Shown: piece after piece, positions 15,704 through 48,741 of the stretch
How positions within the stretch are numbered: position 1 is the first letter of the stretch
Layout of the letters: each line of letters begins with the position of its first letter
Source: an uncultured Actinomycetota bacterium
GTDB taxonomy: Bacteria; Actinomycetota; Actinomycetes; JAFAQI01
Length of the DNA: 64,000 nt
Direction of reading: 5' to 3'
Assembly: GCA_963770565.1 (NCBI GenBank)
Contig: CAVYQE010000006.1
Location: 96,001 to 160,000 of the forward strand
Made by a program: the position numbers and the translations under genes
The notes under the pieces: model-generated
Told to the model about the DNA's origin: nothing
Seen by the model: only the letters and a program-made list of their open reading frames with translations
Database searches by the model: none

Positions 15704-15704
15704 C

Positions 15705-24950: not shown

Positions 24951-26102
24951 ATGAGGGACGGCTACCGCATCATCGACACCGACACACATGTCGGGCCTAC
25001 TGCGGATGTGTTGTACGAGTACGGATCTGACCAGTTGCGCGCGCGCCGGGAGGAGCTGGCGCAGTACGAGGTGCAGACTCGCGACGGCACCGGGCTGTCG
25101 ATCCGGCCCTTCCCGTACAAGCGCCAGATGGGCGACAAGCCCGGCGACGACGGCACCGGAAGCGCGGGCGGCACCCCGGCCCTGAAGGGCAAGACCGCGA
25201 GCAAGGTGCGCGAGCCGGTGCAGCCCGAGGTGTCGGTGAAGAACTCGGCCGGGCGGCTGGTCGACATGGACCGCGAGGGTCGCGACATCGACCTGATCAT
25301 CCCCGGCACCTTTGCCACTGCGGTGTCGGCGATCGAGCCGTCGCTGGCACTCGAGCTGCACTCCGCTTATCACCGCTACATGGCCGACTACTGCTCCGCC
25401 GACCAGGACCGGTTGAAGGCGACCATCCTGGCGCCGGCCTGGGACCCCGAGTGGGCCGCAGCGGAGATCCGGAGGTGGGCGCCGGAGAAGTGGGTCACCG
25501 CGGTGACGGTGGTCCTGCCGGAGGGCACTCCGATCGACGACCCCGACCTGCACCCGATCTGGCGGGCGATGGACGACAACGACCTGCCGATCCTGCATCA
25601 CTCGTTCTTCTACGAGCCGCCGTTCTTCCCCGGCTACCGGGACATCTGGGGCCATGTCGCAATGGCGCGCGCGGCGGCACATCCGTGGGGCGCGCAGCGG
25701 TTGCTCGGCTACCTGCTGTTGTCCGGGCTGCTCGATCAGTACCAGACGCTGCGGATCGGCTTCGCCGAGTGCAGCGCGGGCTGGCTGCCCAGCTGGTTGA
25801 GCCGGCTCGACGGCCAGGCCGACTACCTCAGCCCGTCCCTGCCGACCCGCAAGCAGACCGCGATGGAGTACGCCCAGTCCGGCCGGGTCTTCTGCGGCAT
25901 CGACCTGTACGAAGGCGAGACGATCGGCAAGGCGGTCATGTCGGTCGTCGGCGACGGCGTCCTGATGTATCAGTCCGACTACCCGCACGACCAGTGCTAC
26001 TTCCCGGAGTCGCCGGACGTCGTCCTCAACTGGTCGATCGATGAGGGCAGCAAGCGCAAGCTGATGGCCGGCAACGCCGAGAAGTTCATGCGGCTGCTGT
26101 GA
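24951..26102 (+). CDS. Amidohydrolase_2 family protein, paralog 3 of 3
   Basis: MRDGYRIIDTDTHVGP, HHSFFYEPPFFPGYRDIWG and SDYPH motifs. Confidence 0.9.
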   Translation: MRDGYRIIDTDTHVGPTADVLYEYGSDQLRARREELAQYEVQTRDGTGLSIRPFPYKRQMGDKPGDDGTGSAGGTPALKGKTASKVREPVQPEVSVKNSAGRLVDMDREGRDIDLIIPGTFATAVSAIEPSLALELHSAYHRYMADYCSADQDRLKATILAPAWDPEWAAAEIRRWAPEKWVTAVTVVLPEGTPIDDPDLHPIWRAMDDNDLPILHHSFFYEPPFFPGYRDIWGHVAMARAAAHPWGAQRLLGYLLLSGLLDQYQTLRIGFAECSAGWLPSWLSRLDGQADYLSPSLPTRKQTAMEYAQSGRVFCGIDLYEGETIGKAVMSVVGDGVLMYQSDYPHDQCYFPESPDVVLNWSIDEGSKRKLMAGNAEKFMRLL

Positions 26103-26662: not shown

Positions 26663-28300
26663 TCAGCGGGTTGACGTGCGCTGCGAACGGATCTGGATCG
26701 GCGTCAGCGCGGCCAGGTCGATGTCGAGCAAGTACGGCTTGCCGGAGCCGAGCGCCTCGGTAAAGGCCTTCTCGAATTCCTCGACTCCATGGACCGGCGT
26801 CGCGGCGAGGCCGACCGAAGCCGCCAGCGCGCAAAAGTCGGGCGTCGCCAGGTCGACGCCGGTGTGCCGGCCTTCGAAGCCGACGGTCTGGATGTAGCGC
26901 AGGATGCCGTAGCCGCCGTCGTTGAAGACGCACAGCACGACCGGCACCTGTTGCTGCACCAACGTGGCGAGCTCGCCGATGCTGAGCATCAGGCCGCCGT
27001 CGCCTTGGATCACAACGGTCGGCTTGCCGGTCCCGACCGCCGCGCCCAAGGCCATCGGCAGCCCGGGTCCGATCGCCATCGAGGTCGCCCGCATCGACGT
27101 ACGCGGCTCGTAGACCGGGAGCGTGCGGTTGGCCCAGATGGTGGCCGCAATCGTGGTGTCCTTGACGACGATCGCGTCTCGCGGCAGCGCGTCGCGGATG
27201 ATGCTGCTGATCCGGGTGAAGTCGGGCCCGATCGCGTCGTGTGTTTCGGCATCGGCGGCCACGCGCGCCGCCTTGGCCTCCTCGACATAGGCGGGGTCGG
27301 CGCCGCCCGAGTCGACCTGCTCGAGCAGGGCCTGCAAACCGGCGCGTGCGTCGCCGACCATCGCGACCCGCGGCTGGTAGGTGAGACCGATGACGCTCGG
27401 GTCGACGTCGAGGTGGATCAGCGCGCCGGGGATGGTCAGCGCGCGGGCCACCGGGGTGGCCATCTGGAAGCGGGTGCCGACCGCCAGTACGACGTCGGCC
27501 GCGGCGATGATCGGGTCGAGGACGCTCATGTCCGCGTTCGGGCCGAGTGCCAGCGGATGATCCTCCGGGATCGCGCCCCGGCCCTCGATCGAGGTGAGGA
27601 CCGGCGCGCTCAACCGCTCGGCGAGCTGCCGGAGCTCGCCGGTCGCACCGGCCGCGGCAACCCCGCCGCCGGCCCAGATCAGCGGCGACCGGGCGCCCCG
27701 GAGGAGAGCCGCCGCTTCGGTCACCGACGTCGGCTCGGGCCGGGTGACGGCCGGTGGCTCGAACGCGAACGGCGGGTCGTCGTACCGCTTGGACTGCAGG
27801 TCGATCGGGATCTCGACCGCGCCCGGCATCGTCCGCCCGCGCCGCATCTCCGTCACGACCCGGGCGAAGGCGTCGACCAGGTCCTCGCGGCGCTCGACCG
27901 TCGCCGCCGCGCGCACGATCGTGCCGAGCATCTCGGCCTGCCGGTCGGCGTTGTGGATGTAGCCACGGCCCTTGCCGAGGTACGCCGTCTCGACCTGCCC
28001 GGTGATCATCAGGACCGGCGAGGAGGCGTAGGCCGCCTCGAACAACCCGCCCATCCCGTTGGCCGCACCCGGCCCGGTGCTGGTGATGACCACGCCGAGC
28101 GAGCCGGTCGCGCGGGCGTAGCCGTCAGCCGCGTGCACGCCGCCCTGCTCGTGCCGGACCGGCACCAGCTCGACCCGACCGTGGCGGGCGAGGGCGTCGA
28201 AGATCGGCAGGTTGTGGACGCTGACGATGCCGAACACATGGCGCACGCCGAGGGCCGCGAGGAGGTCGACGATCGCCTCGCCACCGGTGCGTTCGGTCAC
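26663..28300 (-). CDS. Thiamine diphosphate-dependent enzyme (acetolactate synthase-like superfamily)
   Basis: RHEQGGVHAADGYAR, TGPGAAN and GDGG...NDGGYG ThDP motif. Confidence 0.92.
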   Translation of the reverse strand: MTERTGGEAIVDLLAALGVRHVFGIVSVHNLPIFDALARHGRVELVPVRHEQGGVHAADGYARATGSLGVVITSTGPGAANGMGGLFEAAYASSPVLMITGQVETAYLGKGRGYIHNADRQAEMLGTIVRAAATVERREDLVDAFARVVTEMRRGRTMPGAVEIPIDLQSKRYDDPPFAFEPPAVTRPEPTSVTEAAALLRGARSPLIWAGGGVAAAGATGELRQLAERLSAPVLTSIEGRGAIPEDHPLALGPNADMSVLDPIIAAADVVLAVGTRFQMATPVARALTIPGALIHLDVDPSVIGLTYQPRVAMVGDARAGLQALLEQVDSGGADPAYVEEAKAARVAADAETHDAIGPDFTRISSIIRDALPRDAIVVKDTTIAATIWANRTLPVYEPRTSMRATSMAIGPGLPMALGAAVGTGKPTVVIQGDGGLMLSIGELATLVQQQVPVVLCVFNDGGYGILRYIQTVGFEGRHTGVDLATPDFCALAASVGLAATPVHGVEEFEKAFTEALGSGKPYLLDIDLAALTPIQIRSQRTSTR

Positions 28301-28322
28301 CGCTCGCTCCCATCCTCCGCGA

Positions 28323-28340
28323 AGATCAGTATCCTATATT
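28323..28340. promoter_or_regulatory. Putative operator 8
   Basis: AGA-TC-AGTATCCT-AT-ATT upstream of the ThDP enzyme. Confidence 0.7.
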
Positions 28341-28350
28341 CCGGGCCGTC

Positions 28351-29100
28351 TCAGGGGCGGAACGTGAACCCGCCGTCGATCGCGAAGGTCTGGCCGGTCA
28401 CCCACGCCGCGTCGTCGCTGCATAGGTAGCGCATCATCCCGTACATGTCCGCGGCTGTCCCCGCGCGCTTGACCGCGTTCTGACTGACCAGCCGCTCGAT
28501 CACCGCGGGCGGCACCTGGCGCTGAGTGGCCTCGTTGTCGATCGTGCCGGGTGCGATCGCGTTGACCGTGATGCCGTCGCCGCCCACCTCGGTCGCCATC
28601 GCGTAGGTCAGCTGGATCAGGCCGAGCTTGCTCACGCCGTACACGCCGCTCGGCCGCCACGCACCGATCGAGGCAATGTTGACGATCCGGCCCCACCTGT
28701 TCTCGCGCATCGCCGGCACCACGGCCGCACTGCACAGCAGCGGGCCTTTGAGGTTCACCGCCATCACGAGGTCCCAGTAGCCGGGGTCGATCTCGGTCAG
28801 CTTGGCGCGCTCGAGGTCGCCCCAGATCCCGGCGTTGTTGACCAGCACGTGTACGCCGCCGAACTCCGCGACCGTCGCGGCAACGAGGTCGCTGACACTC
28901 GTTGCGTCGGTGACGTCGACGGTCACCGCAAGGCAGCGCCCACCGCTCTCCCGGATGTCGGCGGCGGTGGCCTGCGCGGAGTCGCTGTCGACGTCGGCGA
29001 TCACGACTGCGGCGCCATCTCTGGCGAACGACTGCGCGTACTCGCGGCCGAGGCCGCGACCCGCTCCGGTGACGATGGCTACCTTGTCGTCGAGCGTCAT
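28351..29100 (-). CDS. SDR family oxidoreductase
   Basis: TGAGRGLG, NNAG, VYGVSK and VTGQTFAIDGG motifs. Confidence 0.9.
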   Translation of the reverse strand: MTLDDKVAIVTGAGRGLGREYAQSFARDGAAVVIADVDSDSAQATAADIRESGGRCLAVTVDVTDATSVSDLVAATVAEFGGVHVLVNNAGIWGDLERAKLTEIDPGYWDLVMAVNLKGPLLCSAAVVPAMRENRWGRIVNIASIGAWRPSGVYGVSKLGLIQLTYAMATEVGGDGITVNAIAPGTIDNEATQRQVPPAVIERLVSQNAVKRAGTAADMYGMMRYLCSDDAAWVTGQTFAIDGGFTFRP

Positions 29101-29155
29101 TTCACGAGCTCCCATCGAGCTTTGGCACTAGCATTGGGCCTCTGACAACCCCAAG

Positions 29156-29173
29156 AATTGCGTATACTCTGTT
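29156..29173. promoter_or_regulatory. Putative operator 9
   Basis: AAT-TG-CGTATACT-CT-GTT between the divergent SDR and ABC fusion genes. Confidence 0.7.
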
Positions 29174-29247
29174 TTGATGGCACGCCGGGGCTGGAGTCAG
29201 CCCGCGGGCGGCAGTGTGAACCCGAACACAGCCGCGAGGAGTTCGCA

Positions 29248-32070
29248 TTGGTGACCATCCCCTTCCCGGGTGCGGACTTTCAGATCCCCTACAACGTGCT
29301 CATTCTGGGTCTGATCACGGGTCTCACCTACTCGTTGCTGGGAATGGGAATCACCCTGGTCTACCGGACCTCGCGGGTGCTCAACTTCGCTCAGGGCGAG
29401 ATGGGCGCGCTGCCCGCGATGATCATCCCGATCCTCGTGATCAACCGGCACTGGAACTACTGGGTCACGCTGTTCATGGCGATCGGGGGCGCCGTACTGG
29501 TCGGTGCGCTGGCCGAGTTTCTCGTGATCCGGCGGCTGCATGCCGCCTCGCGGCTGACCGCTTTGGTCGCGACGATCGCCCTCGCCGAAGTGCTCTACAT
29601 CGTCGGCATCCTGATCCCGAAGGGATCATCGGACCTGATCGGGGCGTCATACCCGACGCCGTTCTCGACCTCCATCACGATCGGCTCGCTCATCCTCGGG
29701 CCGGGGCAGCTGTTGATCCTCATCGTGGTCCCGCTCACGATGATCGGCCTGACCTTGTTCCTACGCCGCAGCCGCCTCGGCCGGGCCAGTCGCGCGGCGG
29801 CGGAGAACACCGAGGCGGCACAGCTCGCCGGCATTCCGACCAACCGGATCTCGCTCGCGATGTGGTCGATCGCAGGTCTGCTGGCGGGCATCTCCGCGAT
29901 CCTGATCGGCCCGACGCAACCGATCTCGGTCGGTTCGGCGCTCGGCCCGACCCTGCTGGTGCGCGCGCTCGGCGCCGCGATGCTCGGCGGGCTGACGAGG
30001 TTGCCGACCGTGTTCCTCGGCGGGATCGGGATCGGTCTGATCGAGGCCCTCGTCACCTGGAACTACCCGAACGGTGACGCGACCGACCTGGTGATCTTCG
30101 TGATCATCCTCGGCAGCCTGCTGGTGCAGCGCCGGCTCGGGCAGCAGGCCCGCGGGATGGAGGAGAGCTCCTGGTCGCTCGCCCGCAACCTCCGTCCGCT
30201 TCCACCGAGCCTCGCAGCCCACCCGCGGGTCCGCCGCGCCCGGGTGGTGGCCTTCGTGGTGATGATCGCGATCGCGGTCGCGCTTCCGTTACCACTGCAC
30301 TCGGCGCAGCGGTTCTTCCTCAGCGAGGTCGTGGTCTTCGCGCTGATGGGGCTCTCGCTTGTCGTGCTGACCGGCTACGCGGGACAGGTCTCACTCGGCC
30401 AGCTGGCTTTCGTCGCGGTCGGTGCAACGGTCGGCGGCCGCTTCCTCGAGATGGGGCTGCCCGGTCCGCTGGCGGCATTGATCGCGACCCTGATCGGCGG
30501 CGCGGTCGCGCTGGTGGTCGGGCTGCCCGCGCTGCGGATCCGCGGGCTCTTCCTCGCGGTGACGACGCTTGCCTTCTCGGTGGCGGTGGCCGGCTGGATG
30601 TTCGGGCAGGGCTGGCTGGTGAAGAACACCGGCTTTGCCAACTCGTTACAGATTTCGCGGCCGAACATCGGCGGGCTGAACTTCGAGGACGAGAAGTACT
30701 ACTACTGGCTGTGCCTGTTGATCCTGGTGGTCGTCGGGCTTGCGGTCGGGTGGCTGCGGACCAGCCGGCTCGGCCGCTCGATGATCGCGGTCCGCGACAA
30801 CGAGGCCTCTGCGGCCAGCCTGTCGATCTCGCCCGGGCGGACCAAGCTCGCCGCGTTCGTGATCAGCGGGTTGATCGCATCGCTGGCCGGCTACCTGTAC
30901 GGCGGGTTGCTGGTCGACTTCTCCTACGACCCGGCGTCGACCTTCGGTGCGCAGGGATCGCTCGACCTGGTCGTGATGACCGTGCTGGGTGGCGTCACGA
31001 CCGTCACCGGCGCGGTCGTCGGCGCGGCCTGGGTGCAGGGACTGCCGGAGCTGTTCGGCCAGAACATCGGGATCCTCAGCTCCGGCTTCGGCCTGATCGC
31101 GATCCTGCTGGTGCTTCCGGGTGGTCTCGCCTCGCTGGTCTTCACCCTCCGCGACCGGGCCGCGGCCTGGTTGGCGCGAAGCGGCGTCGGCGAGGCCGAA
31201 GCGCCGCCGGCCGCTGCGGCAGTCCAACCTCGGGCCGAGGCGACCGGGCCACCGGTGGCAAGACCCTCGCCCGATGTCGGACCACCGGCGTCGGGCGATG
31301 CCGAGATCCCGTTGCAGGCACACGGCGTACGCGTCAGCTATGGCGGGCTGCTTGCCCTCGACGACGTGTCGGTCTACGCGCGTCCCGGCGAGATCGTCGG
31401 CATCATGGGGACCAACGGCGCGGGCAAGACAACGCTGTTCGACGTCCTCTCCGGCCGGATCCGTCCGGTCAACGGCGAGGTGCAGCTCTACGGCCGCGAC
31501 ATCACCCGCCAGCCCTCGCACCGGCGGGCGCGGCTCGGCCTCGGCCGGACCTTCCAGCAAGCGCGGCTGTTCGACGACCTGACCGTCATCGACGCGGTCC
31601 AGATCGCGGTCGAGGGCGGCTCGGACCCCGGCCGGCCGGCCGCCGACACCGGCCGGGTCGAAGCGCGCCGGATCCGCCGGGGCCGCGCCTCCGCGCACGC
31701 AGCGTTGACGATGGTGGGCCTGCACGACCAGCGGCATCGTTACGCCGGCGAGCTGTCCACCGGCACCCGCCGGCTCGTGGAGCTTGCGTGCGTGGCCGCG
31801 CTTGGCGCGAAGGTGCTCCTGCTGGACGAGCCGACCGCGGGCTTCACTCAGGCCGAAGTCGACGAATTTGTTGTGGTGCTACGGAATCTGCGGGATACGA
31901 CCGGGGTCACGTTGGTCGTGATCGACCACGATGTGCCGATGATGATCGAGCTCGCCGAGCGCTTGTACGTCCTGGAGGCGGGCCGGGTGATCGCCGAAGG
32001 ATCGTCGACGATCCTCAACGACGACCCGCGGGTCGTGGCCACCTACCTCGGTACGACGACCACGACATGA
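29248..32070 (+). CDS. Fused branched-chain-amino-acid-type ABC transporter: LivH-like + LivM-like permeases + LivG-like ATPase
   Basis: LNFAQGE (LivH); GYAGQVSLGQ, LRIRGLFLAVTTLAF and AVRDNE (LivM); GTNGAGKTT, LSTG, LLLDEPTAG and IDHD (LivG); GAGGAG RBS before TTG/GTG at 29248/29251. Confidence 0.9.
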   Translation: MVTIPFPGADFQIPYNVLILGLITGLTYSLLGMGITLVYRTSRVLNFAQGEMGALPAMIIPILVINRHWNYWVTLFMAIGGAVLVGALAEFLVIRRLHAASRLTALVATIALAEVLYIVGILIPKGSSDLIGASYPTPFSTSITIGSLILGPGQLLILIVVPLTMIGLTLFLRRSRLGRASRAAAENTEAAQLAGIPTNRISLAMWSIAGLLAGISAILIGPTQPISVGSALGPTLLVRALGAAMLGGLTRLPTVFLGGIGIGLIEALVTWNYPNGDATDLVIFVIILGSLLVQRRLGQQARGMEESSWSLARNLRPLPPSLAAHPRVRRARVVAFVVMIAIAVALPLPLHSAQRFFLSEVVVFALMGLSLVVLTGYAGQVSLGQLAFVAVGATVGGRFLEMGLPGPLAALIATLIGGAVALVVGLPALRIRGLFLAVTTLAFSVAVAGWMFGQGWLVKNTGFANSLQISRPNIGGLNFEDEKYYYWLCLLILVVVGLAVGWLRTSRLGRSMIAVRDNEASAASLSISPGRTKLAAFVISGLIASLAGYLYGGLLVDFSYDPASTFGAQGSLDLVVMTVLGGVTTVTGAVVGAAWVQGLPELFGQNIGILSSGFGLIAILLVLPGGLASLVFTLRDRAAAWLARSGVGEAEAPPAAAAVQPRAEATGPPVARPSPDVGPPASGDAEIPLQAHGVRVSYGGLLALDDVSVYARPGEIVGIMGTNGAGKTTLFDVLSGRIRPVNGEVQLYGRDITRQPSHRRARLGLGRTFQQARLFDDLTVIDAVQIAVEGGSDPGRPAADTGRVEARRIRRGRASAHAALTMVGLHDQRHRYAGELSTGTRRLVELACVAALGAKVLLLDEPTAGFTQAEVDEFVVVLRNLRDTTGVTLVVIDHDVPMMIELAERLYVLEAGRVIAEGSSTILNDDPRVVATYLGTTTTT

Positions 32071-32151
32071 CCGAAAGGTCCGGACCACGCGCGATGGGTC
32101 CGATTCGAAATTCGTAACAGTCGGGTGTCAATCCATCGACGGATTCCCGAG

Positions 32152-32169
32152 AATAGGGTATACCTAATT
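32152..32169. promoter_or_regulatory. Putative operator 10
   Basis: AAT-AG-GGTATACC-TA-ATT upstream of the binding protein. Confidence 0.78.
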
Positions 32170-32256
32170 CGCACCGCGGCCGACCGCTCGCGTTCCGGCG
32201 TACCGGTGTCGGGTTAAGGCTGGCGCGCATCCCAGCCACGACAGGAGGGGCACGAC

Positions 32257-33576
32257 ATGCTCGGTTCTCGTCCGCGTCAACGATCGATCCTGGCGACGAT
32301 GGCAGTTGCCGTCCTGGGCTTAGCGGTCGGCTGTAGTAGCTCGTCGAGCGGGGGTAGCCCGGGATCGGGATCCTCGTCGCCCGCAACCAGTCCGTCGACC
32401 GCGCCGTCGTCGACGACACCGATCACCATTGGTGTGGCGGTGCCCGACCTGTCCGTGTTCGTGAAGTTCAGCAAGGCGTTCGGCGTCGGCAACCCGCAGA
32501 CCCAGGCCGCCTCCGTGCTGGCGGCGTGGAAGAGCAGCGGCAGCGTGCCGGTCAACGGGCACCCGGTGAAGTTCGTCTACAAGTCCTACAACATCGTCGA
32601 CCCGGCCGCGGAGACCGCGGTCTGCAAGACGTTCGCGCAGGACGACCACGTCTTCGCGGTCATCGGTGGCCAGAGCTTCGAGACCGGTGCGCAGTGCCTT
32701 ACCGGGCAGTTCCACATCCCGGTGGTCGACCTCGACTCGGTGCCGGCGAGCTCCTACCAGAAGGGTGCGCCGGACTACTTCACCCTCCAGCCGGACCAGA
32801 ACACCTTCTACAAGGACTACATCGACTGGGCCGCGAAGGCGGGGCTGTTCAAGAACCAGAAGATCGGCATGTTCATCAGCTCTGAGGTGCAGGAGAGCGC
32901 GAACGTCGCCAAGACCGAGCTGACCAAGCTCGGCTACAAGGTGACGAGCTCGGTCACGGCCAACAGTGCGGGTGTGGGCAGCAATGCCGACCAGCTGGCG
33001 ATGCAGAAGTTCAAGGCGGCCGGCGTCACGGTGATGATCCCGTTCGTGGGTGGCAGCGACGAGATCAACGCTCTCGGGTACGCCGCGAAGCAGCACTACA
33101 ACCTCAAGGTCGTCGACCTCGACACGTCACAGCACACGACCGACGTGGCAGCAGGCGCTTTCCCGGCCACGCTCTACAACGGCACGCAGGCACTGACGTT
33201 CGCGGCGACCGGCGAGAAGGCGGCCAACCTGCCCGAGACTGCTGAGCAGACCGCCTGCATCAACAACTACAACACCTTCTCGGGTGCGAACATCCAGCGG
33301 GTCAGCCCGGAGGTCTCGGGTGAATACCAGAACCTGCTGGAGACCTGCGACATAGCCAACATCGTGCTGAAGGGAATGCAGAACGCCGGCAACAATCTCA
33401 CGGCGGCGTCCTTCATCTCCGGCCTGGAGCAGATCCAGAACATGCCGATCGCAAGCGGCGGCAATGTGTCATTCAGCTCGACCGACCACTGGGGCATTCA
33501 CCAGCTCCGGGCGGTCAAGTGGACGATCGCGTGCCACTGCTGGGCGGCGAACGGCGACTGGTTCTCGACCAGCTGA
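32257..33576 (+). CDS. ABC transporter substrate-binding lipoprotein (type I PBP, LivJ-like fold)
   Basis: Lipobox LAVGC, Ser/Pro linker, PITIGV and VFAVIG motifs; follows the Liv-type fusion. Confidence 0.82.
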   Translation: MLGSRPRQRSILATMAVAVLGLAVGCSSSSSGGSPGSGSSSPATSPSTAPSSTTPITIGVAVPDLSVFVKFSKAFGVGNPQTQAASVLAAWKSSGSVPVNGHPVKFVYKSYNIVDPAAETAVCKTFAQDDHVFAVIGGQSFETGAQCLTGQFHIPVVDLDSVPASSYQKGAPDYFTLQPDQNTFYKDYIDWAAKAGLFKNQKIGMFISSEVQESANVAKTELTKLGYKVTSSVTANSAGVGSNADQLAMQKFKAAGVTVMIPFVGGSDEINALGYAAKQHYNLKVVDLDTSQHTTDVAAGAFPATLYNGTQALTFAATGEKAANLPETAEQTACINNYNTFSGANIQRVSPEVSGEYQNLLETCDIANIVLKGMQNAGNNLTAASFISGLEQIQNMPIASGGNVSFSSTDHWGIHQLRAVKWTIACHCWAANGDWFSTS

Positions 33577-33585
33577 TTGCAGACC

Positions 33586-33630
33586 CGGGGACGGGCGGTG
33601 GGCAGGGGGCCCGCCGCTCGTCCCCGTTTC
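33586..33630 (+). terminator. Intrinsic terminator after the binding protein
   Basis: CGGGGACGGGCGGTGGGC-AGGGG-GCCCGCCGCTCGTCCCCG followed by TTTC. Confidence 0.7.
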
Positions 33631-33859
33631 ACGTGTCCTTGCTTGTAGACTGCGAGCGTGCCGAGGTGCCCGGCCTCGGCTTCCGGCGGCACCCGCTGCG
33701 ACCGTCGTGGTCCGGTCTGACTCGGTCATCGAGAGTCGTGAGCCACGGATCGCGCAAGGGTGCGTCGGCCTCATCCGGGTCCGGCCGGTGGCCGCAGCAG
33801 CGGTCCGCGACGCCATCGCCATGGCGTTGGGAAGGCCGGTCGACTGACGAGGAGCGCGC

Positions 33860-36058
33860 TTGCCCCCACGGTCCCGCCGCCGCACCCGCGGTGGCGTTCC
33901 GGTGCCGCCCCGGCAGGGTGCGGACGCTCGGCCCGCGCGGGTTCACCCTCGCCCGGCGCAGCAGGCCAGTGCACCGCGGCGCACCGCGCCACGCCGGACC
34001 TCGACGAACCGGCGACAGGACCAGGGGCCGCTCGCCGTCCTCGCCTTGGCTGCAGCGGAGGTTGACCGACGCCCGGTGAACCAGGCGACGCGGGCGCTGT
34101 TCCAGGCAGTGGCCCTGCTGCTGCGCGAACAGCGGGTCGAGGCCACCACGGCGCCGATGAGCCCGGCCCAGCGAGTGGCGCAGCAGAAGCGGATCGAGGG
34201 CCTGGCCGCCACGCTGGCCCGTACCGCCGCCCGCGACACATCGCTGTTCGCGCTCCTGGCCGATGGCGCTGCGCTGCTCCCGGGCACGAGCGCCGCGGTA
34301 CGCGACCTTCGGATCAAGGCCGGTCTCGCGGCCGAGCCGGAGGTTGCGGCGCCGTCGCCACCATCCGAGCCCGGGTCCGCCCGCGAGCAGCGTCAGGTTG
34401 TCCCGCAGTCGGCGGCCTCCCGCAACCTCGCCAACCCGTTCCTCGCGCCGGAGTACTCGGCGGCGCCCACTCCGCGGCCACGGCCACGGCTGCTCGCCGA
34501 CTGGGAACTGATCCGCCCACTGCTGCGGGCGTTCGAGGAGTCCACTGCGGACGCCCCGTCCTGTATGACCCTCCCGGCACCGAGCCATGCCCACATCGCC
34601 GCCGGCCTCGACCTCATGCCGCACCAGGCCCAAGTCGTGGCAAGCGCCAAGAACGGCCATCGGACTTTCCTGCTCGCCGACGAGCCCGGTCTCGGCAAGA
34701 CTGCTCAGGCCCTGCTCGCCGCCCAAGCCGCTCACGCCCACCCGCTGCTGGTCGTCGTACCGAACGTCGTCAAGACCAGCTGGGCCCGCGAAGCCGCGAT
34801 GTGGACGCCGAAGCACGGCGCCACCGTCATCCACGGTGACGGCGAGACCGTCGACGCGTTCTGCGACATCGTCATCGTCAACTACGACATCCTCGACCGG
34901 CACGTCGGGTGGCTCGGGAGCTTTGGCTTCCGCGGGATGGTCATCGACGAGGCCCACTTCATCAAGAACAAGTCCTCGCAGCGCTCGCAGAACGTGCTCG
35001 ACCTGTCGCGCCGGGTCCGCGAACGCACGGCACGACCGCTGCTGATGGCCCTGACCGGTACGCCGCTCATCAACGACATCGAGGACTTCCTGGCGATCTG
35101 GGAGTTCCTCGGCTGGATCACCGGCAGCGAAGTCGGTCCCGACCTGTTGCACGCCCTTGAGGCCAACGCCATGACGCCGCTCGATCCCGGCTTCTACCCG
35201 GCCGCGCGTGAGTCGGTGATCGAGATGGGGGTGGTCCGACGGCGCAAGGTCGACGTTGCGAAGGACATCCCGGACCGGCGCATCGCCGACGTGCCGGTCG
35301 AGCTCGAGGGCGCGGCGGGGTCGTCGGTGCGCGCGGCCGAGCGCAAGCTTGTCCAGCGCCTGGTGAAGCGCTACCGGAGCGCCGTGGCGGCCCGCAAGGA
35401 CACCGACCGGACGGTGGATGTCGACGCGGCGATCGTCCGTCAAGTCTGCGCGCGGGAGCTACGCGAGTCCGACGAGAACGACACCGGAGAGAACGTCTTC
35501 TCGATGATGCGGCGGATCGGCCAGGCCAAGGCTGAGCTCGCGGCCGACTACACCGCCCAACTGTCCCGCAACGCCGGCAAGGTCGTGTTCTTCGCCAAGC
35601 ACATCGACGTGATGGATGCGGCCGAGCGGGTCTTCGCCAAGCGCGGCATCAGCTTCTCCTCGATCCGCGGCGGCCAGACCACCCGGGTACGGCAACAGAA
35701 CCTCGACTCGTTCGTCAACGACGAGGACGTCCACGTCATTGTCTGCTCGCTGACCGCCGCCGGCGTCGGCATCAACCTTCAGGTGTCCTCCAACGTCGTG
35801 CTCGCCGAGCTGTCGTGGACCGCGGCCGAGCAGACGCAGGCGATCGATCGGGTCCACCGCATCGGTCAGGACCAGCCGGTCACTGCGTGGCGGATCATCG
35901 CCACGCAGACCGTCGACGCCCGGGTTGCCGAGCTCATCGGCGCCAAGGAGAGTCTCGCCGCGCGCGCACTTGACGGCGCTGACGTCGAGGTCGCAAGCCT
36001 CGACCTCCAGCTCGAGACGCTCGTCAGCCTGCTGACCGACGCTTTGGCCCCTGGCTGA
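33860..36058 (+). CDS. SNF2-related DEAH helicase/ATPase; start uncertain
   Basis: LADEPGLGKT, IDEAHFIKN, ALTGTP, GVGINL and QAIDRVHRIGQ motifs. Confidence 0.9.
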   Translation: MPPRSRRRTRGGVPVPPRQGADARPARVHPRPAQQASAPRRTAPRRTSTNRRQDQGPLAVLALAAAEVDRRPVNQATRALFQAVALLLREQRVEATTAPMSPAQRVAQQKRIEGLAATLARTAARDTSLFALLADGAALLPGTSAAVRDLRIKAGLAAEPEVAAPSPPSEPGSAREQRQVVPQSAASRNLANPFLAPEYSAAPTPRPRPRLLADWELIRPLLRAFEESTADAPSCMTLPAPSHAHIAAGLDLMPHQAQVVASAKNGHRTFLLADEPGLGKTAQALLAAQAAHAHPLLVVVPNVVKTSWAREAAMWTPKHGATVIHGDGETVDAFCDIVIVNYDILDRHVGWLGSFGFRGMVIDEAHFIKNKSSQRSQNVLDLSRRVRERTARPLLMALTGTPLINDIEDFLAIWEFLGWITGSEVGPDLLHALEANAMTPLDPGFYPAARESVIEMGVVRRRKVDVAKDIPDRRIADVPVELEGAAGSSVRAAERKLVQRLVKRYRSAVAARKDTDRTVDVDAAIVRQVCARELRESDENDTGENVFSMMRRIGQAKAELAADYTAQLSRNAGKVVFFAKHIDVMDAAERVFAKRGISFSSIRGGQTTRVRQQNLDSFVNDEDVHVIVCSLTAAGVGINLQVSSNVVLAELSWTAAEQTQAIDRVHRIGQDQPVTAWRIIATQTVDARVAELIGAKESLAARALDGADVEVASLDLQLETLVSLLTDALAPG

Positions 36059-36095
36059 TACCTCCGACGCGCCGTGCGCACCGGGGTCGCCTGCG

Positions 36096-36135
36096 ATGGC
36101 GACTTAGGGGTCATAGACGACCCCTAAGTCGCCAT
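36096..36135. repeat. 40-nt hairpin (family B), probable bidirectional terminator or REP-like element
   Basis: ATGGCGACTTAGGGGTC-ATAGAC-GACCCCTAAGTCGCCAT (perfect 17-bp stem) followed by GATCTTG, between convergent genes. Confidence 0.8.
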
Positions 36136-36156
36136 GATCTTGTACGAGGCGGTTGA

Positions 36157-37026
36157 CTAGTACGGCTTCTGCCAGATGCCGGCACTGGTCATGTAGATCA
36201 TGGTCGAGGCCATCGAGCCGGCCGACATCGCGTGGTCGACCGCGATCGTCGCGCCGTTGAGCTGGGCGTCGTCGGCGCACAGCAGCGCAAGGACCCGGGC
36301 CGCCTCGACCGGTTGGTAGACCAGCGGATTCGGCCGCTTCGGTCCGCTGTCGGCGGTCGGCTCGCCGGTGACGTACTCCGCGATCGCTGCCTTCGTCCGG
36401 TCGGCTTGCTCGGTCGCGACGCCACCGATCAGTACGGCGTTGACCCGCACCCCCTCGAGCACGTACTCGACCGCGAGGGTGCGGCTGAGCTGGACCAGGC
36501 CGGCCTTGGATGCGCTGTATGCGGCCATCCGCGCCGGACCCTCGATTGCGTTGATCGACGCGATGTTCAGCACAACCCCGGAGTGCTGCTCGGCCATGAC
36601 CCCGAGCGCCGATCGGCAGCAGAAGAATGCGCCTTTGAGGTTGGTGTCGAGGATGTCGTCCCAGTGCTCCTCGGTGGCGAGGTGCGAGGGCTGGATCGGC
36701 GGAGCGCCTTCCGTACCGGCGTTGTTGATCAGGACGTCGAGCCGCCCGTGCCGGTCCACCGCCGCCGAGATCAAGGCGGCGCAGTCTGCGGTACGGCGAA
36801 CGTCGGTCGGCACGAACGTCACGTCGTGACCCCCGGTGCGAAGGTCGGACGCGAGCCGTTCCCCGAGCTCGGCCCTCCGCGCGCCGAACACGACCCGCGA
36901 TCCGGCCCGAGCAAAGAGCTCGACGATGCCGCGACCGAGTCCGGACGTCCCGCCGGTGACCACTGTCACCTTGCCGGCGACTGCCGCGATCGTCGAGGCG
37001 GACGGGGCGTCGTCAGCTGCTGCCAC
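36157..37026 (-). CDS. SDR family oxidoreductase
   Basis: TGGTSGLG, NNAG and AYSASK motifs. Confidence 0.88.
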   Translation of the reverse strand: MAAADDAPSASTIAAVAGKVTVVTGGTSGLGRGIVELFARAGSRVVFGARRAELGERLASDLRTGGHDVTFVPTDVRRTADCAALISAAVDRHGRLDVLINNAGTEGAPPIQPSHLATEEHWDDILDTNLKGAFFCCRSALGVMAEQHSGVVLNIASINAIEGPARMAAYSASKAGLVQLSRTLAVEYVLEGVRVNAVLIGGVATEQADRTKAAIAEYVTGEPTADSGPKRPNPLVYQPVEAARVLALLCADDAQLNGATIAVDHAMSAGSMASTMIYMTSAGIWQKPY

Positions 37027-37441
37027 AGGGATTCTGATCCTTGATGAACCCTTGGAATCCGCTCAGCTGCTCGCTGTAGTCGTGCTGGGTGAGGTGGGTG
37101 AAGACCGCGCGGTATCCGACCGTGTCGCCGGGGGTGATCTTGGAGTTGTTCTCGACCGGGGTCGCGGTGATCCGCTCGAGGTCGAGGCTGTCGCGGTTGA
37201 GCGCGGCGATGCTGACGACCGGGCAGTACGACGTCTTCCCGGAGCGGTTGCGCACGGTGACCTGTACCGATGCGATTAGCCCGTCGCGACGGATGATCGC
37301 CTTGCTGACGACAAGCGGCGGCCGGTTGAGGGCCGCGACGAAGGTCAGCGCGATCGAGATGATCAACCCGACGGTGGTGATCGTGACGAAGGCGGTGACC
37401 GGGGTTCGCTTGGACTCGCGGACGCGGCTAAAGAGACTCAC
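37013..37441 (-). CDS. Small membrane-anchored hypothetical protein (one TM + beta-rich domain)
   Basis: N-terminal hydrophobic helix, VQVTVRNRSG strand, two Cys; overlaps both neighbours. Confidence 0.7.
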   Translation of the reverse strand: MSLFSRVRESKRTPVTAFVTITTVGLIISIALTFVAALNRPPLVVSKAIIRRDGLIASVQVTVRNRSGKTSYCPVVSIAALNRDSLDLERITATPVENNSKITPGDTVGYRAVFTHLTQHDYSEQLSGFQGFIKDQNPCGSS

Positions 37442-39684
37442 GACGCGCCGTCCGATTCGGTGCCGCGGATCATCAGCCGGGCCACCACACCCTCAGCGAG
37501 ACCGGCCGGCGCGCCCAGATCGCGGATCCCGGCCTTGTCCATGAAGAGCACGTGGTCGGCGACCTGCAACGCCGCCGCGACCGACTGCTCCACCATCAGC
37601 ACGGTGGTGCCGTTCTCGACCACCCGGCGGATCACTCTGAGCAGCTCGTTGGTGATCACCGGCGCGAGTCCCATCGACAACTCGTCGATCAGCAACAGGT
37701 CCGGCCCCGCCATCAGGGCGCGGCCGAGGCTCATCATCTGCTGCTCGCCGCCCGATAACGTGCCGGCCGGCTGTGACAGGTGGCTGGACAGTGCCGGGAA
37801 GACGTCGAGGACCTCGGCGAGCCGCTCCTCGACGAGCTCCTTATGCCCGGCGAAAGGATACGCACCGAGCCAGAGGTTTTCGCGCAACGTCAGGCTCGGG
37901 AAGGTGGCCCGACCGCCGCTCATCAGCGTGATGCCGAGCCGCGCGCGTTGCTCCGGCGGTACGCCGAGGATCTCGGTCCCGTTGAACCACGCCTTTCCGT
38001 CCTGCGGCTCGAGCAGGCCGGCGATCACGTTGAGCAGGGTGGTCTTCCCGACTCCGTTCCGGCCGAGCAGGGCATGGCAGCCGCCGCGTTCGATCTGCAG
38101 GTTGACGTCGAACAAGACCCGGATCGCGCCGTAGGAGAAGTCGACGTCTTCGAGCACGAGCAGGTCGCCGGCGTACTCCGCGGGTGGCTGGTCGGGCTCG
38201 TCGGTGGGCTCCATGGTCTCGGCGCGACCCTCGCCGAGGACCACCGAGGTTGCCGCGTTGACCAGGTGGGGCGGGCGCTCGTCGTCGTCGCGCTTGTCCG
38301 CGTCGCTGCTGGTGCCGGCGACGTACGCCAGGACCCTTGCCTCGTCGGTCGGGTAGGTCCGGATCGCGAACACCAGCAGCAGCAGGCCGGCGGCGGCGAG
38401 CATCGGGATCAGGGTCAGGAAGGCGGCGCGGAGCCCGAACGCATCGGAGAGGAAGCCGAAGATGGCCGGCGACGCGGCCGAGCACAGGCTCTGCAGCACG
38501 GTGTCGAGCGCGGTGCCGCGGCCGCGCAGCTGCGGACGCAGGACGTCGAGCCGGACCGCGTTGAGCGGTGGGATCGCCGCGATGATCGCGAACGCGCCGA
38601 GGGTGAAGAACACCAACATGACCGGCGTACTGCCGACCGAGAACGCGACGTAGAACAGCGGCAGCCCGAGGAGTCGGGCCGCGCCCGCGACCAGGACCCG
38701 CGCCGAGCGCCGGCCGATGTAGGTCAGGTAGTCGGCGATGTAGCCGGCCGACAGCGCGCCGATCAGGCCGCCGAGGGCGAACAAGCTGGTGGCGACCGAC
38801 GCCTGCGGCACGGTGAGGTGGTGGTAGCGAAGCAGGAACGTGACCGTCCAGACCCCGATGCCGCCGAAGAAGATGCTGCCGACGGCGGAGGAGATCATCG
38901 AGACAGTGAAGGTGGGCACCCGCAGGATCTCGCGGTAGGCGTCGCGCAGTGAGAGCGCGTCCTCGTCGACCGCGGCCCGCGCACTCAGGCTCTGGTGCCG
39001 GCGATCCTGCTCGCCCCGCGCCGGCTCCGACAGCCGCCAGGCCAGCATCGCCACGATGAAGCCCGGGGCGGCGAAGAAGTAGAACGCCGAGCGCCAGCCC
39101 CACGCCGCCGCCATCGCGGCGCCGACCGGGATCAGGAAGAACCCGATCAGCTGGCCGATCTGGTAGATGCCGAGCACCTTGGACCGCTGGTGGACCGGGT
39201 AGTAGTCGGCCAGCAGCGACTGAGTGGTCGGGACGACGGCGGGCGAGGCGCTGCCCAGCACGATCCGGGCGAAGAACAGCGTGACGTAGCCGGTGGCCAG
39301 CCCGGTCCAGAGCATCGCGATGCCCCAGACCGCGCCGGCCCAGGCGATGACTTTGGTCCGCGAGGCCCGGTCGGCGAGCGTGCCGAACGGCACCGTGCCG
39401 ATCGTGACGACGACGGCGTACGAACTGCCGAGCAGACCGAGCGCCGCGTCGCTGAGCTGGAACGACGTCTTGAGGTACGGGAAGACGGTCGACAGGAGGT
39501 ATTGGTCGCTCACGCTGATCGCGTACGCGGCGGTCAGCAGGATCAGCGGGTAGCGCGAGACGCCGACCAGTCGGCGGGTGACCTGGAAGGCGACCCGCGG
39601 AGTGCGGATCGGTGCCAGGGAGGTGCCGCCGTCGCCGCCCGACGAGCCCGCGCCGCGAGCCGACGGCGGCGCGGTTGCGGTCAT
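37438..39684 (-). CDS. MFS permease fused to a LivF-like ABC ATPase
   Basis: MFS motif A (GTLADRASR), about 12 hydrophobic segments, acidic linker, then GRNGVGKTT, LSGGEQQ, LLIDELSMGLAP and VEQ. Confidence 0.88.
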   Translation of the reverse strand: MTATAPPSARGAGSSGGDGGTSLAPIRTPRVAFQVTRRLVGVSRYPLILLTAAYAISVSDQYLLSTVFPYLKTSFQLSDAALGLLGSSYAVVVTIGTVPFGTLADRASRTKVIAWAGAVWGIAMLWTGLATGYVTLFFARIVLGSASPAVVPTTQSLLADYYPVHQRSKVLGIYQIGQLIGFFLIPVGAAMAAAWGWRSAFYFFAAPGFIVAMLAWRLSEPARGEQDRRHQSLSARAAVDEDALSLRDAYREILRVPTFTVSMISSAVGSIFFGGIGVWTVTFLLRYHHLTVPQASVATSLFALGGLIGALSAGYIADYLTYIGRRSARVLVAGAARLLGLPLFYVAFSVGSTPVMLVFFTLGAFAIIAAIPPLNAVRLDVLRPQLRGRGTALDTVLQSLCSAASPAIFGFLSDAFGLRAAFLTLIPMLAAAGLLLLVFAIRTYPTDEARVLAYVAGTSSDADKRDDDERPPHLVNAATSVVLGEGRAETMEPTDEPDQPPAEYAGDLLVLEDVDFSYGAIRVLFDVNLQIERGGCHALLGRNGVGKTTLLNVIAGLLEPQDGKAWFNGTEILGVPPEQRARLGITLMSGGRATFPSLTLRENLWLGAYPFAGHKELVEERLAEVLDVFPALSSHLSQPAGTLSGGEQQMMSLGRALMAGPDLLLIDELSMGLAPVITNELLRVIRRVVENGTTVLMVEQSVAAALQVADHVLFMDKAGIRDLGAPAGLAEGVVARLMIRGTESDGAS

Positions 39685-39719
39685 GCGGGCGGCTCCTTTG
39701 TCGGGCTAGTGCCGGTGCA

Positions 39720-39737
39720 AGATGAGGATACTCATCT
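39720..39737. promoter_or_regulatory. Putative operator 11
   Basis: AGATG-AGGATACT-CATCT, near-perfect 18-bp palindrome upstream of MFS-LivF. Confidence 0.72.
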
Positions 39738-39757
39738 CGGGCCGACGGATGCTGCGA

Positions 39758-41723: not shown

Positions 41724-42662
41724 TCACAAGCCGTACGGAGCGAGGACGGCGGCGGTTGTGTCGGTGAGCATCGCGGCGAGCGCGGCGGTCTGGCGGATCT
41801 GCTGACTCAGGCCGCCGATCGGACCCTCGACCGTGAAGCCCATCGCGCCGAGCGTCTGGTGGGCGCGGTAGGCGGTCTCGGTCGCGGCGGTTGCGGCTGA
41901 CTGGCGGGCGGTCACGGCCCGCGAGCGGCGGCCGGCGTCGTCGGTGTCGAACGCGTGCGCTGCAAGTCGAATCAGGGTGTCCGCGGCGGCCAGTTGCAGA
42001 TGGCAGTTCGCCAGCGGGTGCGCGGTCGCCTGAAAGTCGCCGATCGCCCGGCCGAACTGCGTGCGCTGGCCGGCGTACGTCACAGCCGCGTCGAGCAGGC
42101 GCTGCCCGGCTCCGCGCAGGTACGCTGCCGCAGCGATCTCGCCGAGCGTCGCGGCCTCGGGCCAGGTCGGCAGCTCCTCGTCGCGTTCGAGTGTGCAGCG
42201 GCCCCACGGCTCGCCGGCCAGCGTCTCGACGGCTTCGATCGGACCGACGGCGTGCGCGAGGTACGCCGTACCTCCGTCGATCTCGACGAACACCTCCGCG
42301 ACCGGCGCCCACGGCATGAGCGGCGGCACGCCCATCGAGACGAGGGTCTGGCCGGTCGCGATCCGGTCGGCGTCCGCTGGACCGAGCGCGCGGGCCGCGA
42401 CCAGGGTCGCGATCAGCGGGCCGCGTACGCCGGCCCGGCCGAGCTCGATCCCGGTCGCCGCAAGCACGTCCGCGCTGCCGCCGTCCGGCGCGGTCAGCCC
42501 GAACACCCCCAACGCGGCCAGCTCGTTCCAGCGCTCGGGCGAGAACGCGGCCGGCTCGGCGCTACCGGTCTCGGCGCTCGAGGCATCGCTCCGGCTGCAC
42601 ATCGTGCGCACCGCGGCAGCGAGTTCGCGCGCCTCCGGCGAGTAGGAGAGGTCGATGCTCAC
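41724..42662 (-). CDS. Short acyl-CoA dehydrogenase partner subunit
   Basis: RTQFGRAIGDFQA and QTLGAMGFTVE motifs; 312 aa; lacks the SEP-GSD motif. Confidence 0.85.
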   Translation of the reverse strand: MSIDLSYSPEARELAAAVRTMCSRSDASSAETGSAEPAAFSPERWNELAALGVFGLTAPDGGSADVLAATGIELGRAGVRGPLIATLVAARALGPADADRIATGQTLVSMGVPPLMPWAPVAEVFVEIDGGTAYLAHAVGPIEAVETLAGEPWGRCTLERDEELPTWPEAATLGEIAAAAYLRGAGQRLLDAAVTYAGQRTQFGRAIGDFQATAHPLANCHLQLAAADTLIRLAAHAFDTDDAGRRSRAVTARQSAATAATETAYRAHQTLGAMGFTVEGPIGGLSQQIRQTAALAAMLTDTTAAVLAPYGL

Positions 42663-43588
42663 GCGGATCGAAGCGACCAGCGCGATTCGGCGACGGCCCG
42701 GCCAGGTGGTGTCATCGCCTCAGCCTCCCGCACCAGGGCGGGAATCCGCATCGTCCACAGATGCAGGTCGTACTCGGTGGTGAATCCCATCGCGCCGGTG
42801 AGCTGATGGGTCTCGGTCATGATCCGCTTGGCGGCGGTCACCGCATGGGCGAGCGCGGCCGCGGAGTTCTGCGTCGGTGCGCCGTTCCAGGCGGCCTCCA
42901 GGGCGAGCCAGCGGCTGCCCTCCGCGAGCACCGTCGACTCGGCGAGGCGGTGTTGCAGGGCCTGGAACGAGCCGATCGGGCGCCCGAACTGGTGGCGGTC
43001 GCGGACGTAGGTGATCGTGTGCTCCAGGGCCGCCGTCATGGTGCCGACCAGCTCGATCGCCAGGGCCACCCGCCACCAGGCCGTCGCCCGCTCGGGCAGC
43101 ACGCCCGGCACCACCTCGCCGGGATCGGATCCGACCCGTCCGATCGGATATCCGTACGCCGACCGGACCCGTTCGCCGTCGCCACTCGCGGCGATCAGCC
43201 GGACCTCGTCGTCGCCCACGACCAGGATCGTGGTCGCATCGGCGACGTAGCGGGCCGGCCCGCGGGCGCCGGCGCGAACGACCGCGATCGGGCCGTCCGG
43301 CAGCTCGCCGATCGTGGCCGGCGCGATCAGGCAGGTCGCACCCGCAGTGATCACCCCGAGCGAGCGGGCGACCGCCTCGACGACGAGCGCGGCCTCGAGC
43401 GGTCCGGTGTCGGGACTCTGAAAGCAGCTCGTGTATCCGGACCGCGTCAGCTCCCACGCCAGCTCCGTGTCATAGCGCGGCTCGACCCCGCCGAGCGCGC
43501 GGATCCGGTCCGGCCCGGCGTGGCGATCGAGCAACGTGGTGACTGCGTCGAGCAGGGCCCGCTGCTCGTCATCGAGCACGAATCGCAT
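42659..43588 (-). CDS. Short acyl-CoA dehydrogenase partner subunit
   Basis: RHQFGRPIGSFQALQH and QLTGAMGFTTEYDLH motifs; 309 aa. Confidence 0.85.
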   Translation of the reverse strand: MRFVLDDEQRALLDAVTTLLDRHAGPDRIRALGGVEPRYDTELAWELTRSGYTSCFQSPDTGPLEAALVVEAVARSLGVITAGATCLIAPATIGELPDGPIAVVRAGARGPARYVADATTILVVGDDEVRLIAASGDGERVRSAYGYPIGRVGSDPGEVVPGVLPERATAWWRVALAIELVGTMTAALEHTITYVRDRHQFGRPIGSFQALQHRLAESTVLAEGSRWLALEAAWNGAPTQNSAAALAHAVTAAKRIMTETHQLTGAMGFTTEYDLHLWTMRIPALVREAEAMTPPGRAVAESRWSLRSA

Positions 43589-48554: not shown

Positions 48555-48580
48555 CCACGCGCGTCCCGCCCGCGGCTGCG

Positions 48581-48741
48581 ATGGCGGTTTAGCAACGCTA
48601 GAGCGTGGTTATCCCGCCATGGGCGTGGCCAACCCGCTACGCCGGCGCGGCCCGTGTCCCGCCGTCGGTTTCTATGGCCGTTTAGCAACGCTAGAGCGTG
48701 GTTATCCCGCCATGGGCGTGGACAACCCGCTACGCCGGCGC
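48581..48741. repeat. Tandem duplication (68-nt unit, 93-nt period) containing family-B 40-nt hairpins
   Basis: ATGGC(G/C)GTTTAGCAACGCTAGAGCGTGGTTATCCCGCCATGGGCGTGG(C/A)CAACCCGCTACGCCGGCGC at 48581-48648 and 48674-48741; two mismatches. Confidence 0.9.

Follow-up and report, generated by a model that had tools for sequence, protein, structure and literature searches.

The 64-kb window analyzed here (64,000 nucleotides of contig CAVYQE010000006.1 from an uncultured Actinomycetota bacterium; G+C ~70%) encodes what appears to be a Liv/Urt-type, binding-protein-dependent ATP-binding cassette (ABC) importer in which one chain, LivHMG, would provide both membrane domains and a LivG-type ATPase. The second, LivF-type ATPase would come as the C-terminal part of a complete, Spinster-like carrier of the major facilitator superfamily (MFS), in a protein that we call MFS–LivF. 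Liv-type importers need a LivG/LivF ATPase heterodimer. The interpretation that we favor, and that the sequences make reasonably probable, is that this LivF domain provides the LivHMG importer with the second ATPase that it lacks and that the carrier is tethered to the importer as a result; a LivF domain in this role would bring one carrier to each importer. No two transporter classes are larger than the ABC transporters and the MFS carriers, which are regarded as separate machines powered by different energy sources; fusing a needed ABC subunit to a complete MFS carrier would force both transporters into one assembly.

Domain composition of the LivHMG and MFS–LivF chains

Genes in the window were called by choosing open reading frames (ORFs) according to their third-position GC content, and domains were assigned by Pfam and NCBIfam profile searches of the translated ORFs. 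The LivH–LivM–LivG triple fusion (940 amino acids, 29248-32070, + strand) consists of a LivH part at about 29248-30147, a LivM part at about 30175-31167 and a LivG-type ATPase part at about 31312-32055. The ORF is open from TTG 29158 (the longest form) or TTG 29248 through 32070 with no internal stop, and we prefer the start at 29248 because GAGGAG lies six bases 5' of it and because it fits the N-termini of eight homologues. As the initial annotation had it, this chain contains LivH-, LivM- and LivG-like domains with the DEPTAG and IDHD motifs. Pfam places BPD_transp_2 (PF02653) in two stretches (E = 1.1e-57) and finds one ABC_tran domain (E = 2.5e-29), and the ATPase part scores best against the NCBIfam models UrtD (192.5 bits) and LivG (174.1 bits), followed by UrtE (122.1 bits). 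Its motifs are GTNGAGKTT, LSTGTRRL, LLLDEPTAG and VVIDHDV. The LivG C-terminal extension, BCA_ABC_TP_C, reaches 17.1 bits in the window protein against a Pfam cut-off of 25.5 and 32.7 bits in a homologue from Embleya. A phmmer search for a solved relative of the LivH/LivM part (29248-31300) gave 0 matches at E <= 0.01, and an AlphaFold2 model of the LivHMG chain built from 9 sequences has a mean pLDDT (predicted local distance difference test) of 52.7, with the membrane part poorly modeled.

The MFS–LivF gene (37438-39684, - strand) is one ORF of 748 amino acids, recognized from its translation and from Pfam and NCBIfam matches. It encodes an MFS domain of 12 helices (residues about 44-445, 38350-39555), a linker of variable length and sequence (residues about 446-505, 38170-38349) and a LivF-type ATPase domain (residues about 506-742, 37459-38169). 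Pfam assigns MFS_1 to residues 51-406 (E = 9.5e-60) and ABC_tran to residues 525-668 (E = 4.3e-26). The NCBIfam ranking of the ATPase part mirrors that of the LivG part: UrtE (182.3 bits) and LivF (157.2 bits) come first, and UrtD (98.9 bits) follows. This protein stays below the cut-off of every NCBIfam model (285.8 bits for UrtE and 441 bits for LivF), the scores of the LivG part likewise fall short of theirs, and such scores below the equivalog cut-offs indicate subfamily membership and not orthology to the named transporters. The ATPase motifs are GRNGVGKTT, LSGGEQQ, LLLIDELSMGLAP (which contains IDELSMGLAP) and VEQS, and the closest solved relative of the domain is 1ji0 (E = 4.8e-51), with 42% identity and a target TM-score of 0.86 in Foldseek. 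A tblastn search with both ATPase domains (E <= 1e-3) finds no third ATPase domain anywhere in the window. Together with the NCBIfam assignments and the motifs, this bears out the earlier proposal that the only LivF-like ATPase here is the C-terminus of an MFS permease; a stand-alone LivF, which could have partnered LivHMG instead, is absent from the 64 kb.

AlphaFold2 modeled MFS–LivF from a nine-row alignment with a mean pLDDT of 71.8 and a predicted TM-score (pTM) of 0.53. The 12-helix core has pLDDT values of about 70-90 and the ATPase domain of about 70-85; the helices of the MFS part span residues 44-461 in the model, and linker residues 458-505 fall below 50. The alignment used throughout for this protein (A1) contains nine MFS–LivF sequences, that of the window and those of eight related loci described below (L002-L009). 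Within it, the linker (columns about 580-660) is variable and ranges from about 50 to 90 residues, with roughly 60 in the window protein.

The MFS part can be placed more precisely by comparison with solved structures. Its closest relative in the PDB by sequence is the Spinster homologue of Hyphomonas neptunium, HnSpns (6e8j, E = 1.8e-23), followed by DgoT (E = 3.9e-14) and then human Spinster homolog 1. Foldseek likewise returns 6e8j, SPNS2 and DgoT, with target TM-scores of 0.73-0.88 (0.87 for SPNS2). Motif A between transmembrane helices 2 and 3, LADRxSRT, which includes D105 and R109, is invariant in A1. We mapped HnSpns residues onto the window protein through the phmmer alignment to 6e8j, taking their roles in the Spinster mechanism from the accessible part of PMC9440201. 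The equivalents of Asp41 (D60) and Arg122 (R140) are invariant in all nine proteins, as are those of the charge-relay residues Asp87 (D105), Arg91 (R109) and Asp142 (D160). Arg42, the putative substrate-binding residue, corresponds to Gln61; this position is Gln in 8/9 proteins and Arg in L009. Glu129, which the same part of that paper describes as the master proton switch, corresponds to Ser147 in the window protein, to Asp in L002-L008 (7/9) and to Gln in L009. The polar network Asp41/Arg42/Arg122/Glu129 is thus incomplete in the window protein, where D60 and R140 are kept and the other two residues are replaced.

Like HnSpns, human SPNS2 and SPNS1, then, the carrier has a 12-helix fold and conserves the equivalents of D41, R122 and D87-R91-D142; unlike them, its family has changed Arg42 and Glu129 equivalents and an ABC ATPase attached at the C-terminus. 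Because these two residues are replaced, we describe the domain as Spinster-like, but as atypical at the substrate and proton site. Judged by these positions, the hardware for conformational switching is kept, and the substrate and proton site is altered, most of all in the window protein. Bacterial Spinster homologues are discussed as broad-specificity efflux pumps in the accessible part of PMC9440201.

Recurrence of the fusion and its companion genes

To the window we added loci from two sources. A scan with the whole MFS–LivF protein against one genome per species retained 80 loci. In eight of them (L002-L009, 22 kb each), the match extends from the N-terminus of the MFS part to the C-terminus of the ATPase, with 35-57% identity; in the remaining 72, it is confined to the ATPase part. 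The sources of the eight are metagenome-assembled genomes (MAGs) of Acidimicrobiia and Actinomycetes and one MAG labeled Burkholderiales, which has two copies (L006 and L009). Two extra loci, L001 and L083, were found in a plasmid collection, both on one replicon of Embleya (Streptomycetaceae). The MFS–LivF protein of L001 is 37% identical to that of the window, and that of L083 (NZ_CP108785.1, 2471464-2486241) is 32% identical over its full length (E = 6e-85). L083 is a second, paralogous set on the same replicon, with the order binding protein, MFS–LivF, LivHMG. Besides the window there are therefore ten MFS–LivF loci in eight assemblies, with identities of 32-57%.

The nine proteins of A1 can be aligned end to end with a mean column identity of 63%, and even the L009 protein retains 35% identity to the window protein overall. 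Walker A, the signature, the Walker B Asp, VEQS and many residues of the membrane domain are invariant. The recurrence of the same fusion in ten loci and eight independent assemblies excludes an artefact. The window gene is moreover a single uninterrupted ORF with a uniform third-position GC of 0.94, so that an assembly or sequencing error or a frameshifted gene pair, a concern raised with the first description of the fusion, can be regarded as refuted. The arrangement has been retained over a deep divergence (to 32% identity) that covers Acidimicrobiia, other Actinomycetes and Streptomycetaceae.

The expectation that the two architectures co-occur also holds. In 10/10 loci outside the window, a LivHMG-type ORF of 937-1036 amino acids lies directly downstream of MFS–LivF on the same strand. 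The window LivHMG is 52-58% identical to its eight homologues in L002-L009 (alignment A2), and 36-38% identical to the Embleya LivHMG ORFs. Exactly one SGGEQQ-coding site is present in each 22-kb locus of L002-L009, which indicates that there is no second canonical LivF within 10 kb in these loci. In the LivG part, the signature is degenerate, LSTG(T/S/A)RRL, and the H-loop His is present (A2); the LivF part carries the canonical signature LSGGEQQ together with VEQS, with Gln at the position of the H-loop His (A1). By these motifs the two ATPase types appear complementary. E. coli LivG and LivF have the same complementary pattern.

Fusions of this composition are common in sequence space. A protein-language-model atlas contains six clusters whose members combine MFS_1 and ABC_tran in at least 98% of cases; they hold 113, 63, 66, 77, 56 and 61 members, 436 in all and mostly from Actinomycetota, with lengths of 684-782 or 1011-1025 amino acids, and no name or family is attached to them. 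A fusion of an MFS carrier with an ABC ATPase was not found described in the literature searched, including the accessible parts of PMC3924187 and bioRxiv 10.64898/2026.05.09.724020, a search that did not extend to TCDB, InterPro or supplements, where an entry may exist; this agrees with the statement of the initial annotation that it knew of no characterized example. The ABC–MFS combination is thus new to the literature searched, and the proteins themselves are public under generic names. What is new here is the Spinster-like nature of the MFS part, the conserved small membrane protein described below and the existence of close relatives with a free-standing LivF.

These relatives are L010 and L011, two short contigs from Actinomycetota MAGs in which a free-standing LivF lies directly upstream of a LivH–LivM fusion gene that runs off the contig. 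The order in L010 is binding protein, LivF, LivHM. The free LivF of L010 is 54% identical to the window ATPase domain, compared with 62% for the fused protein of L004. The window system resembles these and other Actinomycetota Liv fusions, such as those of Streptomyces NZ_CP107787.1 and an 880-amino-acid protein encoded after LivH on a Rhodococcus plasmid, but differs from all of them in its MFS domain, which they lack. The public names of Liv fusions are 'branched-chain amino acid ABC transporter permease/ATP-binding protein' and 'ATP-binding cassette domain-containing protein'. The hydrophobic amino acid uptake family (HAAT, TC 3.A.1.4) comprises LivJ/LivHMGF and UrtABCDE. The window system shares with these two the pair of BPD_transp_2 domains, the LivG/UrtD- and LivF/UrtE-type ATPases and a Peripla_BP_6-type binding protein; it differs from them in that H, M and G form one chain, in that F is fused to an MFS carrier and in its gene context, which is catabolic and not amino-acid related. 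A further parallel is the Sensor Kinase-MFS Fusion family (TC 2.A.1.34), which, according to the accessible part of PMC3924187, also joins an MFS carrier to a cytoplasmic domain of another system; the domain fused in the window differs in being a catalytic subunit that another transporter needs.

The gene that follows LivHMG (32257-33576, + strand) encodes a substrate-binding lipoprotein of 439 amino acids, as had been suggested, with a lipobox-like LAVGC. The protein has no match in Pfam or NCBIfam and no solved relative. It is, however, homologous to the binding proteins of related loci: those of L010 (33% identity, E = 5e-73), L006 (33%, E = 2e-94), L005 (35%) and L007 (33%). Since the L007 protein matches Peripla_BP_6 (PF13458, E = 2.1e-13), we regard the window protein as a diverged LivJ/Peripla_BP_6-type cognate binding protein; a more distant Embleya binding protein also matches PF13458. 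An orthologue lies at most 10 kb away in 5/10 MFS–LivF loci (L001, L083, L005, L006 and L007). In L002, L003, L004 and L008 there is no binding-protein gene among the ORFs tested in a search that was not exhaustive: 19 candidate ORFs from these loci and from L006 have merely 13-20% identity to the window protein, with one BLASTP E value of 1.6, and two motif scans find no such gene in the four loci, the sole match lying inside the LivHMG gene of L004. L009 has a 509-amino-acid ORF (12084-13613, + strand) between its MFS–LivF and LivHMG genes. This ORF shares with binding proteins only a C-terminal W..C.CW motif (E = 0.10), and it may, doubtfully, be a very diverged binding protein.

A second companion is a conserved single-pass membrane protein of 142 amino acids (37013-37441, - strand), the start of whose gene overlaps the MFS–LivF stop (GTGA). 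In 7/10 loci (L002-L008), an ORF of 137-179 amino acids lies between MFS–LivF and LivHMG and starts four bases before the MFS–LivF stop; in three of them (L002, L003 and L005), there is a second overlap, between its stop and the LivHMG start. The gene is missing in both Embleya loci. The window protein is 30-37% identical to the seven others (alignment A4, window and L002-L008), with a BLASTP E value of 2e-34 against L007. It consists of a single N-terminal hydrophobic helix and a domain of ~100 amino acids with two invariant Cys, and it has no Pfam match; the atlas returns only unnamed clusters for it, with weak DUF2393/DUF3426 leads below 0.9 and no family assigned.

The ancestral order MFS–LivF, small gene, LivHMG is broken in the window, where LivHMG and the binding-protein gene lie on the + strand and MFS–LivF, the small gene and a short-chain dehydrogenase (SDR) gene lie on the - strand. 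The SDR gene (36157-37026) overlaps the end of the small gene and belongs to the same transcription unit, but is not part of the transporter. After the rearrangement the small gene still lies beside MFS–LivF, and each piece has its own copy of the operator described below. We read the retention of the small gene and the separate operator copies as selection for continued co-expression. A SNF2-family helicase gene (SNF2-rel_dom and Helicase_C, 33860-36058, + strand) is located between the binding-protein gene and the MFS–LivF unit, and its position may be a trace of the rearrangement by which the transporter operon was split.

Proposed assembly and alternative interpretations

In the assembly that we propose, the LivF domain would pair with the LivG domain and dock on the importer, and docking would hold the MFS carrier beside it in a fixed 1:1 stoichiometry via the long flexible linker. 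The small single-pass membrane protein is probably part of this assembly, and the parts would be co-expressed via their common operator, together with the catabolic gene cluster. The importer would take a compound up, and the Spinster-like module could act on this compound or a product of it, either as a companion carrier or as a relief valve. Given the co-expression with a catabolic gene cluster, the substrate is most likely an amphipathic organic acid or a related compound. Since the linker is long, varies among the proteins and is predicted to be disordered, we consider co-assembly for stoichiometry and co-localization likelier than a rigid coupling of the energetics.

Several points weigh against this interpretation. 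LivHMG and MFS–LivF are 5.4 kb apart and on opposite strands in the window, unlike in every relative. The close relatives with a free LivF imply that the ABC cycle can run without the MFS part, which is thus an add-on. With Gln61 and Ser147 in the window protein, ordinary proton-coupled transport by the carrier is not assured. A free LivF encoded elsewhere in the genome is possible, as the ATPase search spans the 64-kb window only. Finally, the LivG/LivF pairing, the assembly, the direction of transport and the substrate are all deduced, from domain identities, a conserved fusion, gene adjacency and an operator common to the parts that are themselves observed. A complex prediction with the LivH, LivM and MFS domains (three chains, 1000 residues, 9-row alignments) scored 0.00 against a mark of 0.32, and we use it neither way.

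The alternatives differ in what they ask of the MFS domain. At one extreme, the protein could be a mechanochemical hybrid in which the cycle of the LivG/LivF dimer drives or gates the Spinster-like domain, or the carrier gates the ATPase, so that import and counter-transport are obligatorily coupled. The covalent fusion, conserved with identities of 32-57% across 11 loci (the window included), speaks for such coupling, and the neutral residue at the Glu129 position in 2/9 proteins (window and L009) would fit another driver that replaces protons; in HnSpns, the E129Q substitution shifts the protein to an inward-closed state, according to the accessible part of PMC9440201. However, a variable linker of about 50-90 residues that is predicted to be disordered is a poor transmitter of force, an acidic residue is kept at the Glu129 position in 7/9 proteins, and relatives with a free LivF exist. 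We consider this mechanism unlikely, while granting it some weight. The same standing applies to its fuller form, an energetically coupled primary and secondary transporter with the small protein as an extra subunit, in which uptake would be obligatorily linked to a second solute or lipid: we think it unlikely as well. At the other extreme, the MFS domain may not transport at all and may act as a membrane anchor, a scaffold or a ligand sensor (transceptor), with the role of positioning or regulating the LivF ATPase and perhaps of docking the small protein. The Gln61 and Ser147 substitutions in the window protein speak for this, as does the small membrane protein, which stayed with the MFS–LivF gene through the rearrangement. 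But conservation is about equal in the MFS and ATPase parts, and motif A and the charge-relay residues are invariant in 9/9 proteins, whereas a mere anchor needs no such 12 helices. A silent carrier is accordingly rather improbable in our view.

It is also conceivable that MFS–LivF is autonomous, with an ATPase homodimer that regulates its own carrier, and that LivHMG uses a LivG homodimer or another LivF. The longer atlas clusters (about 1011-1025 amino acids), which might carry extra domains, are the only point that we can cite for this. Strict adjacency to LivHMG in 10/10 loci, translational coupling, the complementary LivG and LivF motifs and the lack of a second LivF signature within 10 kb in L002-L009 all argue otherwise, and we judge autonomy to be very improbable.

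If the cycles of a tethered carrier and importer communicate, the system would represent a new principle of transport coupling and the first described ABC–MFS hybrid. If they are independent, it would be a natural case in which an importer and a carrier that is probably of the efflux type are forced to co-assemble in a set stoichiometry. For bacterial Spinster homologues, the locus provides a defined genetic context, with a catabolic regulon and a dedicated binding protein. Embleya (sp. NBC_00888) is a cultured organism that carries two copies, and the system is directly testable there.

Operator, regulon and surrounding genes

A palindrome of 20 nucleotides (nt) with a GTAT(A/C)C-centered core, recognized by eye, is common to the three transporter upstream regions. 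The first copy (29155-29174, + strand) lies between a divergent SDR gene (28351-29115, - strand) and LivHMG, 74 nt upstream of the LivHMG start. The second (32151-32170, both strands) is 87 nt upstream of the binding-protein gene, and the third (39719-39738, - strand) is 35 nt upstream of the MFS–LivF start. The initial annotation had assigned an operator to all three genes, and pattern searches confirm this, with the MFS–LivF copy being the most diverged. A pattern built from two sites (29155 and 32151) and allowing up to three mismatches gave 4 matches against 0.03 expected, including a new site at 7533, but missed the MFS–LivF copy, which had been spotted by eye. A four-site pattern gave 8 matches, or 6 distinct sites, against 0.04 expected. 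The input sites match this pattern by construction, and the independent new sites are those at 28322 and 1191. The copy upstream of LivHMG was found with both patterns, and the MFS–LivF copy with the four-site pattern. Across the 82 fetched loci, the exact operator pattern is absent.

Beyond the transporter, the operator is found at 28322-28341, 22 nt upstream of a thiamine pyrophosphate (TPP)-enzyme gene (26663-28300, - strand); at 7533-7552, in front of a luciferase-like monooxygenase gene; and at 1191-1210, at the 5' end of an SDR gene. Sites in front of LivHMG and the divergent SDR gene, the binding-protein gene, MFS–LivF, the TPP enzyme, the luciferase-like monooxygenase and this SDR gene define a small regulon. 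The GntR/FCD regulator gene at 7678-8541, which lies beside the 7533 site, encodes a candidate repressor that may act on the operator.

The catabolic genes of the window encode acyl-CoA ligases and dehydrogenases, SDRs, the TPP enzyme, amidohydrolase_2 proteins and a cytochrome P450, and the same kinds of genes are present in the related loci. Two adjacent short genes at 41724-43588 (- strand) are acyl-CoA-dehydrogenase-like, and a ChsH2-type protein with an oligonucleotide/oligosaccharide-binding (OB) fold and a zinc ribbon is encoded beside a thiolase-like protein at 54400-56073 (+ strand). Such pairs of acyl-CoA-dehydrogenase and ChsH2/thiolase-like genes typically belong to pathways that degrade steroids or branched side chains. 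As a lead, the two pairs point to a substrate class.

Among the other features, the 1212-amino-acid ORF at 56173-59811 (+ strand) and the 489-amino-acid ORF at 4949-6418 (- strand) have a coding-like third-position GC and no Pfam match at E <= 1e-4. No Rfam family matches anywhere in the window at gathering thresholds. Three paralogous amidohydrolase_2 genes (11335-12885, 17225-18379 and 24951-26102) share 63-80% nucleotide identity over several hundred bases (repeats D1-D5), and further genes of this family are located at 9706-10902 and 49527-50399. A 77-nt intergenic repeat with internal palindromes (D6) is present at 7585-7661, 12880-12956 and 15630-15706 with 78-83% identity, and looks like a repetitive extragenic palindromic (REP) or miniature inverted-repeat transposable element (MITE)-like element. 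A second intergenic repeat (D9, 48560-48741) consists of two tandem 89-nt copies that are 91% identical and 93 nt apart.

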